Source of the DNA: Candidatus Finniella inopinata
GTDB taxonomy: Bacteria > Pseudomonadota > Alphaproteobacteria > Paracaedibacterales > CAIULA01
NCBI RefSeq assembly: GCF_004210305.1
Contig: NZ_SCFB01000004.1
Coordinates: 289,554-313,553 of the forward strand
Length of the DNA: 24,000 nt
Reading direction: 5' to 3'
Shown here: one piece after another, positions 11,976 to 13,787 of the stretch
How the letters are laid out: each line of letters opens with the position of its first letter
Numbering within the stretch: position 1 is the stretch's first letter
The notes under the pieces: generated by a model
What the model saw: only the letters and a program-made list of their open reading frames with translations
What the model was told of the DNA's origin: nothing
The model's database searches: none
Position numbers and translations under genes: made by a program

Positions 11976-12431
11976 TTAATGCACCGTCATTTGGTCTTGG
12001 ACAAGTTGAGCAACTTGTTTCTGCTTCTGGGCGATTTGTTCTCGAATAGCCTGCTCCTTGGCTTGAATCTGCTCCAGAATCTTGGAAGCTTTCTTTGCCA
12101 CCATTTGCTTGGCCTGACCTTGACAAAGCGTTTTTAGCTTTTCGGCAACTTGATTTAATTTGGTATAAAGATGCGTTGTTTGTAAGGAGCACTCATGGGT
12201 GGGTGCGGCCAATAAGGTTGGCAACGTATGAATAAGTATGCTTGCTTGGATGAAACCTGATGCCTGCTGAACCCCTCTCTTGAAGGCTGAGTGATCCAGC
12301 TTCCCTTTTTGCTGAGAAGACTGGAGTTGAGCCACGAGGGCATCCATATCCGCTATCACTTGCGTTTCCAAACGGGCTATCAATCCAGCTGGCGAAGAGT
12401 CCGATGATGGTGTCGGTGTTGTTTCTTCCAT
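11976..12431 (-). CDS. Hypothetical Q/K-rich coiled-coil protein, last gene of the reb operon
   Basis: The 151-aa ORF starts 11 nt after the stop of the upstream gene on the same strand. The C-terminal half (KASKILEQIQAKEQAIREQIAQKQKQVAQLVQDQ) looks coiled-coil. I recognise no family. Confidence 0.5.
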   Translation of the reverse strand: MEETTPTPSSDSSPAGLIARLETQVIADMDALVAQLQSSQQKGKLDHSAFKRGVQQASGFIQASILIHTLPTLLAAPTHECSLQTTHLYTKLNQVAEKLKTLCQGQAKQMVAKKASKILEQIQAKEQAIREQIAQKQKQVAQLVQDQMTVH

Positions 12432-12442
12432 GCTTATAACCT

Positions 12443-12778
12443 CTAGCTTGGCAAGGGCAGGTTTTTCAATAAACCTTCCACACCCTGGCTTATTTTTAAA
12501 AACTCGGTATCTTGGGTCATCTTTGCTTTTTGCAATCCTTCAATTACCGGCAACCAGGCGGGGTCTTTGCTTTTGACAAACTCTTCGGTTGCTTTGGCTA
12601 AAGCGGCGCCATTGATAGCATCAAAGTTCCGCTGGCTATCGCTTGCATCCTGTAAAGCCAAAGCAAGGGTATGGGCCATTGCTTGACACGCTTTACCAAC
12701 TGATTCGCTTTGCAAGGTGCTAGCGCCTGTAACCAGGCCATGAATAAAAGAAACACTTGGATCAAAGGAATCAGCCAT
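12443..12778 (-). CDS. Divergent RebB-family-like protein
   Basis: The 111-aa ORF has a centre, ESVGKACQAMAHTLALALQDASDSQRNFDAINGAALAKA. This aligns by eye with ESPAQALSMVYQTMAHSLSLSMQNASSTQQQMQQIGNAIVAKA of the adjacent 71-aa paralog. It lacks the N-terminal QITDAVTQ box. Confidence 0.55.
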   Translation of the reverse strand: MADSFDPSVSFIHGLVTGASTLQSESVGKACQAMAHTLALALQDASDSQRNFDAINGAALAKATEEFVKSKDPAWLPVIEGLQKAKMTQDTEFLKISQGVEGLLKNLPLPS

Positions 12779-12784
12779 CGGTTA

Positions 12785-13000
12785 TTAGTCCATAATATTC
12801 TTAACGGCTTTTGCCACAATGGCATTGCCAATTTGTTGCATCTGCTGTTGGGTGGAACTGGCATTCTGCATAGATAAGCTTAAGGAATGGGCCATGGTTT
12901 GATAAACCATCGACAAAGCTTGAGCAGGCGATTCCCCTAAAACCTTTACATTGGTTTGGGTAACAGCATCCGTGATTTGTCCATTGACTTTGTCATTCAT
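12785..13000 (-). CDS. RebB-family (R-body / 'killing trait') protein, short paralog
   Basis: The 71-aa ORF has VNGQITDAVTQTNVKVLGESPAQALSMVYQ, the N-terminal box shared with the two larger paralogs and typical of RebA/RebB/RebD-type proteins as I recall them. Confidence 0.8.
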   Translation of the reverse strand: MNDKVNGQITDAVTQTNVKVLGESPAQALSMVYQTMAHSLSLSMQNASSTQQQMQQIGNAIVAKAVKNIMD

Positions 13001-13030
13001 TAGCTATGCCTTTCCTTCACAACCCCAGGG

Positions 13031-13065
13031 TAAAGGGAAAGAGCCTTACCCTCTCTTTCCCTTTA
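13031..13065 (-). promoter_or_regulatory. Intra-operon 13-bp hairpin between reb paralogs
   Basis: The perfect stem pairs taaagggaaagag (13031-13043) with ctctttcccttta (13053-13065) around a 9-nt loop. It lies in the 73-nt gap between the 115-aa and 71-aa reb genes. There is no U-tract on the transcribed strand. Confidence 0.45.
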
Positions 13066-13073
13066 TAGTATTG

Positions 13074-13421
13074 TTAGCCAACAATAGAACTTGGTTGTTT
13101 CCTGTTAAGCGATTTAACCACGCCGAGAACATCAAGCATATCAGACGGGATATCCGCCCGTGAAATTTTTTCCGTTCCATCAGCAACGGCTTCCGTATCC
13201 ACCGCATAGATTAAGTTCACCCCTTGGGTGGTCGACGCTTGATGAACGATATTAGACTGCTGTTGGGCAGAGGTGGCATTTTGCAGCGATAAGCCTAAAG
13301 AGCTCGATACTATTTGGTAAAGGTTACTGAGCGCCATAGCGGGGGCGTCAGCAAGCACATTCACATTCGCTTGGGTGACAGCATCGGTAATTTGGGAATT
13401 GACGGGTGTTGGTAGCGTCAT
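13074..13421 (-). CDS. RebB-family R-body protein (115 aa)
   Basis: The motifs are VNSQITDAVTQANVNVLADAPAMALSNLYQ...SAQQQSNIVHQASTTQGVNLIYAVDT. It is near-identical over most of its length to the 108-aa paralog upstream. A GGAGG RBS precedes the ATG. Confidence 0.85.
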   Translation of the reverse strand: MTLPTPVNSQITDAVTQANVNVLADAPAMALSNLYQIVSSSLGLSLQNATSAQQQSNIVHQASTTQGVNLIYAVDTEAVADGTEKISRADIPSDMLDVLGVVKSLNRKQPSSIVG

Positions 13422-13460
13422 AGGGAGCCTCCATTAAGAATTAGAAATGATTGAATGATA

Positions 13461-13787
13461 TTAGGCTTTTGATAACGCTTTAAGGACACCCAGGATATTG
13501 ACCATGTCAGAAGGGATATCGCCTCTGGAAATCTTTTCACTGGCATCGCCAACAGCGGCTGTGTCCACGGCATAGATCAAGTTGACCCCTTGCGTGGTTG
13601 AAGCTTGGTGAATGATATTGGATTGCTGTTGGGCCATGACAGCATTTTGAGCGGCAAGACCCAAGGATTGGGAGGAAATTTGATAAAGGTTACTGAGTGC
13701 CATAGCCGGTGAATCGGCGAGCACTTTCACGTTTGCTTGGGTGACGGCATCGGTAATTTGGGAATTGAGAGCTGTTTCTAAGGCCAT
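13461..13787 (-). CDS. RebB-family R-body protein (108 aa), first gene of the operon
   Basis: The motifs are LNSQITDAVTQANVKVLADSPAMALSNLYQ...AQQQSNIIHQASTTQGVNLIYAVDT. An AGGAG RBS precedes the ATG, and an AT-rich roughly 400-bp promoter region lies upstream. Confidence 0.85.
   Translation of the reverse strand: MALETALNSQITDAVTQANVKVLADSPAMALSNLYQISSQSLGLAAQNAVMAQQQSNIIHQASTTQGVNLIYAVDTAAVGDASEKISRGDIPSDMVNILGVLKALSKA

Follow-up and report, generated by a model that had tools for sequence, protein, structure and literature searches.

An R-body gene cassette of classical layout in Candidatus Finniella inopinata, with a probable RebC counterpart and a conserved fifth gene

A five-gene reb cassette in the Finniella genome

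The stretch of the Candidatus Finniella inopinata genome analysed here (24,000 nt of contig NZ_SCFB01000004.1, positions 289,554 to 313,553; hereafter the window) carries a cluster of reb genes, very probably a complete R-body cassette that is carried by a mobile element, follows the classical 'type 51' layout and has gene roles as in Caedibacter. The bacterium is an endosymbiont of a protist, and R-bodies are protein ribbons, rolled into a coil, which unroll at acid pH. It consists of five open reading frames (ORFs) for proteins of 108, 115, 71, 111 and 151 amino acids (aa), all reading in one direction on the minus strand, from 13787 to 11976, and separated by short spacers of 39, 73, 6 and 11 nt in 5′ to 3′ cassette order (Table 1). 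The ORF list bore out all five genes at the coordinates stated in the initial annotation, a model's reading of the bare sequence, and placed them on the minus strand. Every gene except that for the 111-aa protein is preceded by a Shine-Dalgarno-like sequence.

The same annotation had proposed an R-body (reb) operon and, as a check on it, a profile search with Pfam family PF11747 (RebB, 'Killing trait'; 68 profile positions, gathering cut-off 24 bits). We ran this search, and the proposal held: three of the proteins scored significantly, at 86-102 bits, and the 111-aa protein fell just below the cut-off. No NCBIfam model was found for any of the five cassette proteins. NCBI proteins of Ca. Finniella inopinata match the 151-aa and 111-aa proteins with 100% identity, and the latter is named 'RebB family R body protein' there. 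The reb operon in this organism is thus already known, both published and annotated: a 2025 review of the Holosporales lists R-body genes in Ca. Finniella inopinata and in Ca. Bealeia paramacronuclearis, with reference to Giovannini et al. 2024 (PMC11909080), and because of that report its presence is not a new finding. The new increments, of moderate specialist interest, are a probable family link to RebC, a conserved fifth gene in two lineages, a hairpin within the operon and the alternation of the cassette between integrase islands and phage- or plasmid-type modules.

Table 1 Features of the reb cassette and its surroundings in the window
Feature	Position	Strand	Remarks
IS element with DDE_Tnp_1 + DDE_Tnp_1_assoc transposase, 382 aa	9028..10504	-	28-nt inverted repeats, 89% complementary
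tRNA 3′ fragment (T-arm, acceptor 3′ strand, CCA)	10563..10610	-	about 170 nt from integrase start, reads away from it
P4-type (Arm-DNA-bind_3 / DUF4102-type) tyrosine integrase	10779..11942	+	convergent with the cassette
Fifth cassette gene, 151 aa	11976..12431	-	no family; constant cassette position
RebC-like protein, 111 aa	12443..12778	-	PF11747 23.0 bits; aligned with RebC profile by hhalign
Reb protein, 71 aa, RebD class	12785..13000	-	PF11747 86.1 bits
RNA hairpin, 13-bp perfect core stem GGGAAAGAG.../...CUCUUUCCC	13025..13068	-	in the 73-nt gap from long to short Reb genes
Reb protein, 115 aa, RebA/RebB class	13074..13421	-	PF11747 98.2 bits; GGAGG ribosome-binding site
Reb protein, 108 aa, RebA/RebB class	13461..13787	-	PF11747 102.3 bits; AGGAG ribosome-binding site
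Candidate sigma-70-like promoter, TTGATA-16-TATTAT	13871..13898	-	10/12 consensus matches; 84 nt upstream of first reb gene

The type 51 R-body operon, rebA-rebB-rebD-rebC, is that of the Caedibacter taeniospiralis plasmid pKAP298 (Heruth et al. 1994; Jeblick & Kusch 2005; Date et al. 2026, bioRxiv 10.64898/2026.05.21.725848). To rebuild it, the plasmid sequence (NC_005915; L013/L014; labels L002-L020 denote cassette contigs of relatives or comparison records) was stitched across the record origin. In transcription order it encodes RebA (114 aa), RebB (105 aa) and RebD (81 aa), followed after an 8-nt gap by a 114-aa ORF and then by a 95-aa ORF. The 114-aa ORF is RebC by the UniRef name for the exact sequence, and its mass of 12.5 kDa equals that reported for RebC (Date et al. 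2026, bioRxiv 10.64898/2026.05.21.725848); rebC is absent from the PLSDB gene table of this plasmid because genes crossing the record start are left out.

In gene content and order, the cassette in the window is collinear, gene for gene, with this operon. Each has two genes for long Rebs and one for a short Reb, then, after a tiny gap, one for a RebC-type protein of some 112 aa, and last a small Q/K-rich fifth ORF, and both are carried by a mobile replicon or element. The 'expanded' operon of the initial annotation is therefore a misleading term, as gene count and order are those of the classical Caedibacter cassette plus an overlooked fifth ORF. The two systems differ in host (Finniella is an alphaproteobacterium of the Holosporales, Caedibacter a gammaproteobacterium) and in location, the Finniella cassette being chromosomal and integrase-linked, the Caedibacter one plasmid-borne. 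Their Reb proteins share only about 45-50% identity, a relationship to RebC is seen by profiles only, and their fifth genes (151 aa and 95 aa) have no demonstrable homology.

The closest named relative is the reb cluster on plasmid pBealeia1 (NZ_CP133271) of Ca. Bealeia paramacronuclearis, with long Rebs 63-67% and a short Reb 70% identical to those of Finniella. As in Finniella, a RebC-like protein (152 aa) and a homolog of the 151-aa protein (153 aa) are encoded after the Reb genes; a phage YqaJ recombinase gene adjoins. This cluster differs in having six annotated Reb genes, as compared with three plus one in Finniella, a longer RebC-like protein with a 30-residue N-terminal extension, a distance of 260 nt between its last two genes and its location on a plasmid.

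The order of the five genes is kept across approximately 15 contigs, wherever the contig is long enough. All five genes are under purifying selection, with ratios of nonsynonymous to synonymous substitution rates (dN/dS) of 0.16-0.28 for the 151-aa gene and 0.02-0.15 for the other four, rough values, since dS is near saturation, which takes some weight from this argument. Judged by its sequence, the locus is a genuine, apparently intact five-gene R-body cassette.

Long and short Reb proteins

The N-terminal box (N/G)-x-QITDAVTQ-x-NV-x-VL, noticed initially, is indeed present in the 108-, 115- and 71-aa proteins, whose PF11747 matches span positions 1-62 of the 68 in the profile. Besides QITDAVTQ they contain the motifs QNA(V/T/S) and QQQ, so that all three carry the primary Reb signature of a QITD box, an NA(V) motif and a QQ(Q) motif (Dörr et al. 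2026, PMC13430693).

An alignment of the Finniella, Bealeia and Caedibacter Rebs splits into a long and a short class. The long class is distinguished by a C-terminal extension, TTQG.N.IY.VDTA, and includes the 108- and 115-aa proteins, RebA and RebB; the long forms of Bealeia align there. The short class, ending in QQ.(N/Q)QIG.A...IM, includes the 71-aa protein, RebD (81 aa) and the 77-aa protein of Bealeia. The short Reb form noted initially thus groups with the RebD class. The 108-aa protein is 49% identical to RebB of pKAP298.

The 108- and 115-aa genes, previously called near-identical tandem duplicates, are less alike than that, with 76% protein identity and 74-83% DNA identity, but are tandem paralogs all the same. 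Their duplication must be old, as every related cassette has both copies. The dN/dS values were 0.05-0.08 for the 108-aa gene and 0.06-0.15 for the 115-aa gene; the 71-aa gene is the best conserved of the cassette (94-97% identity, dN/dS 0.03-0.06). By analogy with Caedibacter, the 108- and 115-aa proteins would be the major ribbon subunits, and the 71-aa protein a minor incorporated subunit or a nucleator.

Integrase junction and mobility of the cassette

The P4-type integrase gene that the initial annotation had placed 33 bp from the end of the operon was confirmed by its domain set, namely Arm-DNA-bind_3 (39.9 bits), Phage_int_SAM_3 (25.9 bits) and Phage_integrase (100.1 bits), all above their cut-offs, and by a distance of exactly 33 bp between the stop codons of the 151-aa gene and the convergent integrase gene. 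The protein also matched the phrog_1 integrase (E-value (E) 1e-72). Orthologs with 87-94% identity occupy the same position in L002, L003, L004, L006 and L007, and an integrase with the same Pfam domains lies at the equivalent position in L017.

The tRNA 3′ fragment near the integrase start (Rfam tRNA score 13.8 bits, cut-off 29) is presumably a remnant of the attachment (att) site. The junction between integrase and tRNA fragment is found in the window, L002, L006 and L017, and the acceptor sequences and host genes beyond it differ. The fragments lie at about 2090-2158 in L002 and at about 3350-3400 in L017; that of L002 appears to have a long variable arm, as in class II tRNAs. The fragment reads away from the island, opposite to the common arrangement of an intact tRNA gene that reads towards the integrase. 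No far end of the island was recognised, the window containing no intact tRNA or tmRNA (ARAGORN), no Rfam match and no second att copy. An insertion sequence (IS) element lies about 60 nt from the tRNA fragment, outside the cassette, and identifies this junction as a hotspot.

What the loci have in common is limited to the five cassette genes and the integrase; the other neighbours differ. The cassette is accompanied by genes for RuvC, a large terminase and a P22-type portal in L010, by YqaJ, AAA_24 and primase-type genes in L005, by a capsid gene in a JGI contig, by genes for a partition ATPase (ParA-like) and a helicase in L015, and by YqaJ on the plasmid of Bealeia. A search for reb genes in sequenced phages and IMG/VR contigs gave no match; phrog_32040 does match Reb. 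The mobility suggested initially is borne out by this recurrence, from which the cassette can be seen to travel as a unit, either beside a P4-type integrase and a tRNA-derived site or within phage- and plasmid-type modules. R-bodies are classically associated with plasmids and defective phages, and the mobility of the cassette matches this association.

We consider it unlikely that the Finniella cassette is an inactive relic of a degraded prophage or island, its conservation stemming from selection in other hosts or in phage. What speaks for a relic, and against a working cassette, is first of all that R-bodies have never been seen in Ca. Finniella inopinata, nor in Ca. Bealeia paramacronuclearis (PMC11909080); in addition, no phage structural genes were found near the cassette in the window, the IS element abuts the att-like site, the tRNA is only a fragment and the neighbouring toxin genes look fragmentary. 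Set against this, none of the five ORFs is disrupted, ribosome-binding sites precede four of them, the spacing is conserved, and the dN/dS values of the Finniella copies compared with relatives are as low as those of the relatives compared with each other. Only some cells make R-bodies in Caedimonas and Caedibacter, and non-observation is therefore weak evidence.

The 111-aa gene as a probable counterpart of rebC

The 111-aa gene is probably the counterpart of rebC, an apparently new link drawn from remote, shallow profiles. That the operon encodes a divergent Reb-like protein had been recognised from the start and stands. The match to PF11747 (23.0 bits, E 8.5e-5) covers only profile positions 18-61, and many homologs with 80-93% identity have a precomputed match to the family. 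An alignment of the 111-aa family matched the Reb alignment over 39 columns (hhalign E 9e-4), and its residues 16-70 share 35-40% identity with the short Reb encoded next to it (tblastn E about 1e-6). The protein has no QITD box, the equivalent place holding only LQDAS..QRN, and is composed of a degenerate Reb core (approximately residues 16-70) and a C-terminal region with W...L.K.LP. On these features it is best called degenerate and Reb-derived. The gene is strongly constrained (dN/dS 0.02-0.065).

Position and length agree with this assignment. The 111-aa gene starts 6 nt after the stop codon of the 71-aa gene; the corresponding gap between short Reb and RebC-type gene is 8 nt in pKAP298 and 5 nt in L020, where the RebC-type proteins have 114 and 111 aa. 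A profile of 20 sequences of the 111-aa family aligned with a RebC profile of three sequences over 81 columns, reaching both C-termini (hhalign probability 72%, E 3.4e-5). The 152-aa protein of Bealeia, whose gene lies downstream of the short Reb of that plasmid, bridges the two, with matches to the 111-aa family over 100 columns (hhalign 83%, E 8.5e-6) and to RebC over 108 residues (BLASTP E 0.001). Considered also as a member of the 151-aa family, this Bealeia protein was ruled out there, being RebC-like instead by its match to the 111-aa family. Because the 111-aa protein, the Bealeia 152-aa protein and RebC are all Ala/Gln-rich helices, column-shuffle nulls were built: the three scores linking them were 32.5, 36.0 and 32.5, those of the nulls 11-12 ± 2.3 (maximum 17-21), and none of 100 shuffles reached the observed scores, which lie about nine standard deviations above the null.

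Several observations count against the link. Direct BLASTP of the 111-aa protein with RebC was weak (E 0.11), with the Trp and the terminal L.KN(L/F)P aligned; the relationship is remote, with hhalign probabilities of 66-83% from shallow profiles (effective number of sequences about 1.5); and Caedibacter RebC had no detectable match to the Reb profile (E 0.08). The initial annotation had offered the 151-aa protein as the possible counterpart of RebC; position after the RebD-class gene, length, the hhalign match (E 3.4e-5) and the Bealeia bridge point to the 111-aa gene instead.

BLAST searches with RebC have found no relatives (Raymann 2013, PMC3583457; Matsuoka 2017; Dörr 2026, PMC13430693), whereas the relationship is detected here by profiles. 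Descriptions of RebC from 2013 to July 2026 confine it to Caedibacter taeniospiralis, without homologs elsewhere; a resemblance of some 'secondary' Rebs to RebC appears as a remark only (Dörr et al. 2026, PMC13430693). Accessory 'HP' proteins and groups of 'secondary Rebs' have been reported from reb loci (Raymann et al. 2013, PMC3583457; Dörr et al. 2026, PMC13430693), as have AZC_3784 of Azorhizobium (PMC5527310) and RapA of Pseudomonas aeruginosa PA14 (PMC8322103). With these (HP1.x/HP2.x, S1-S4, AZC_3784 and RapA) the Finniella proteins share the concept of degenerate Reb-like or non-Reb small proteins tied to R-body assembly, a likeness by description only. By analogy with RebC, the 111-aa protein would be an assembly factor that is not incorporated into the ribbon.

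A 153-aa protein (P0069) from a Stylophora pistillata (coral) assembly combines a canonical Reb domain with a RebC-like C-terminal part; it may be a genuine Reb-RebC fusion, or else gene calling may have merged two genes on a bacterial contig contained in the eukaryote assembly. P0064 likewise comes from a eukaryote-labelled assembly, 'Sphagnum jensenii'.

A conserved fifth gene

The 151-aa gene is a separate, conserved fifth gene, and its product would be a cassette-specific R-body accessory protein. It had been annotated as a Q/K-rich coiled-coil protein with no recognisable family, and the lack of a family and the Q/K-richness were confirmed: searches of Pfam, NCBIfam, PHROG and PDB were all empty, and the protein contains 15% Q and 8.6% K and is all-helical in an AlphaFold2 model built with 16 sequences (mean predicted local distance difference test score (pLDDT) 85, predicted template-modelling score (pTM) 0.60). 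The predicted helices extend over residues 14-41, 47-74 and 80-150, the last, C-terminal one thus comprising approximately 70 residues, with 46% Q+K+E in its distal half. The protein is basic (isoelectric point (pI) 8.9), the Reb and RebC-like proteins acidic (pI 4.5-6.5). Fold searches with the model returned generic three-helix bundles only and gave no clue to a role, which does not help the proposed accessory function.

A word-indexed search of 5.8 billion proteins returned three relatives, and a profile search 20 matches at E <= 0.001 among 1.84 billion cluster representatives; the weakest of these, of 1399 aa, is probably spurious, leaving about 19 clusters. Full-length members have approximately 128-170 aa, and none is named. 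In the window, L002-L008, L010, the JGI contig, L015-L019 and the Bealeia plasmid, the family forms the fifth gene directly after the RebC-like gene wherever the contig is long enough, and the Bealeia member, of 153 aa, is a homolog by hhalign (92%, E 7.7e-7). The 151-aa gene evolves faster than its neighbours (45-61% identity, as compared with 76-96%), yet purifying selection acts on it as well. A remote homology to Reb was rejected, the family of 18 sequences matching the Reb alignment over six columns only (hhalign E 0.18).

A fifth ORF also follows rebC in Caedibacter-type cassettes. The 95-aa ORF of pKAP298 (WP_011178481, 'hypothetical') has a 43%-identical counterpart (E 1e-20) at the same position (1459-1776) in L020, a metagenomic Caedibacter-type cassette, and this ORF is likewise Q/K-rich and non-acidic (pI 7.8). 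Homology of the 151-aa family with the 95-aa ORF or its L020 relative was not demonstrable (E 0.5, 0.32 and 0.11), and the two fifth genes are, from the comparisons made, positional and physico-chemical analogs only. A fifth gene nevertheless seems to belong regularly to both cassette lineages and to have been overlooked, and the Caedibacter-type operon may have five genes rather than four. As a best guess, and speculatively, the 151-aa protein could be a scaffold, a cap or a regulator of length or rolling that binds the acidic Rebs during assembly.

Its location at the edge of the cassette, last in order and next to an integrase or a phage RuvC gene, could also fit a mobile-element gene outside the R-body machinery, such as a regulator, an excision or recombination-directionality factor or a phage moron; several-fold faster evolution than in the Reb genes, the lack of Reb similarity and a basic character, as often found in DNA-binding proteins, would agree with this. 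We nonetheless regard such an origin as improbable, about as much so as a relic cassette, as the family lies 3-90 nt behind the RebC-like gene and in the same orientation whether integrase, RuvC, ParA-like genes or nothing lie downstream, was never found apart from Reb genes in the approximately 15 contexts read, has no match to helix-turn-helix or other DNA-binding families, and has a Q/K-rich analog after rebC in Caedibacter-type cassettes.

Least probable, and in our view very doubtful, is a reading in which the 111-aa protein counts as one more structural Reb paralog, the fourth and a degenerate one, and the 151-aa coiled coil takes over the function of the non-homologous assembly factor RebC: the Reb-like core and NCBI name of the former, the lack of Reb similarity in the latter (as long described for RebC) and the non-Reb or 'secondary Reb' accessory proteins of P. 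aeruginosa and Azorhizobium (PMC13430693, PMC5527310) would suit it, but rebC of pKAP298 directly follows rebD, in the place of the 111-aa gene and not in the last position, RebC and the Bealeia bridge are matched by the 111-aa and not by the 151-aa family, pKAP298 and L020 have a fifth gene of their own after rebC, and the 151-aa family resembles neither RebC's position-mate nor the 95-aa ORF.

A broader interpretation, which we put forward tentatively and would rate as somewhat short of probable, would make RebC a strongly diverged member of the Reb-domain proteins, represented by a conserved family in Holosporales-type cassettes (here the 111-aa gene); the ancestral type-51-like cassette would have five genes, and the basic, Q/K-rich, helical fifth protein (151-aa family, 95/105-aa ORF) would be an unrecognised R-body factor. 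The fifth protein would then possibly link the ribbon to the unidentified toxin cargo or tune rolling.

Expression signals and assembly

The hairpin between the long and the short Reb genes has a folding energy of -23 to -29 kcal/mol. Hairpins with stems of 13-15 bp and other sequences occupy the same gap in L003/L006, in L005 (there followed by U5) and in L010, so that the element is kept in position and not in sequence. It may act as a partial terminator or attenuator, or as an mRNA stabiliser, favouring the major subunits and setting ratios. The composition of the Caedibacter R-body, with less than 3% RebD and no RebC (Date et al. 2026, bioRxiv 10.64898/2026.05.21.725848), fits such a role. 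Two points weaken this picture: the z-scores of the hairpins are modest (-1.8 to -2.9), and the promoter is a candidate only, as the scan gave no more sites than shuffled sequence.

Gene roles were inferred from knockout work on Caedibacter (bioRxiv 10.64898/2026.05.21.725848). In the assembly route that we propose on this basis, a single promoter upstream of 13787 would drive the whole operon, and the hairpin after the second long gene would lower or stabilise the transcript such that the major subunits exceed the downstream factors; translation of the 111-aa gene may be coupled to that of the 71-aa gene via the 6-nt gap devoid of a Shine-Dalgarno sequence. The two long Rebs would polymerise into an alpha-helical ribbon with pH-triggered extension, the 71-aa protein would be a minor incorporated subunit required to start roll formation, and the non-incorporated 111-aa protein would hold assembly on the helical, lamellar path and off beta-aggregation. 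The 151-aa protein would act as a cassette-specific accessory, its binding to acidic Rebs being a guess. Because R-bodies have never been seen in Finniella, their expression there would be conditional. The transfer of roles draws on one heterologous study of a gammaproteobacterial operon, whose Rebs are only about 45-50% identical to those in the window, and this distance argues for caution.

R-bodies are among the few protein machines that turn a pH change into a membrane-breaking, approximately 50-fold extension, and they are being engineered as actuators. What is gained is an alignable RebC family, consisting of RebC with two relatives, the Bealeia protein and some 40 clusters of the 111-aa type, in which the conserved Trp and the C-terminal L.K.(L/F)P motif become targets for mutagenesis. 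Furthermore, with a conserved fifth gene in both lineages, constructs with four genes, as expressed to date, may lack a component. Finally, integrase islands and phage- or plasmid-type elements carry the cassette around as a unit, and polymorphic-toxin genes often lie next to it, which narrows the search for the toxin.

Neighbouring genes in the window

An orphan 69-aa domain of the colicin-E3-type 'Cytotoxic' rRNase family (PF09000, 73 bits, truncated to profile positions 3-58 of 80) is encoded within 16298-18164 on the minus strand. It is preceded by ORFs of 287 and 84 aa and followed by one of 139 aa, a candidate immunity protein, and the whole looks like a degraded polymorphic-toxin locus. 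Giant DUF637 proteins are encoded upstream of the reb cassettes in L010 and L006, that of L010 ending in a Tox-URI2 nuclease. The killer toxin of the R-body trait is still unidentified (PMC11909080), and the recurrence of toxin loci near the cassette provides a lead towards it.

Divergent from the reb operon, a 387-aa protein with a signal-peptide-like N-terminus is encoded at 14198-15361 on the plus strand; its HTE...CDSC motif pair recalls deaminases. A role as a conserved deaminase toxin partner was not supported: the Pfam Toxin-deaminase match had only E 0.17, PDB, PHROG and PADLOC gave no match, and no relative was found beside other cassettes. A pair consisting of a ribbon-helix-helix antitoxin (PF01402, 29.5 bits) and a ParE toxin (PF05016, 52.5 bits), in overlapping frames, follows at 15703-16247 on the plus strand.

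A complete lasso-peptide-type cluster was found at 18648-23328 on the minus strand, in the genome of an obligate endosymbiont. It starts with two tandem precursor-like ORFs, of 34 aa (...EMTLG|TCSNSFENFGMKWA) and 44 aa (...EMTLG|NGCTSFENFGSKYCNCH), both with Thr at position -2, Gly1 and Glu8, which are followed by genes for a Transglut_core3 protease, an Asn-synthase-like cyclase and an ABC exporter. Its G+C fraction of 0.27-0.33, as compared with about 0.45 nearby, suggests recent horizontal acquisition.

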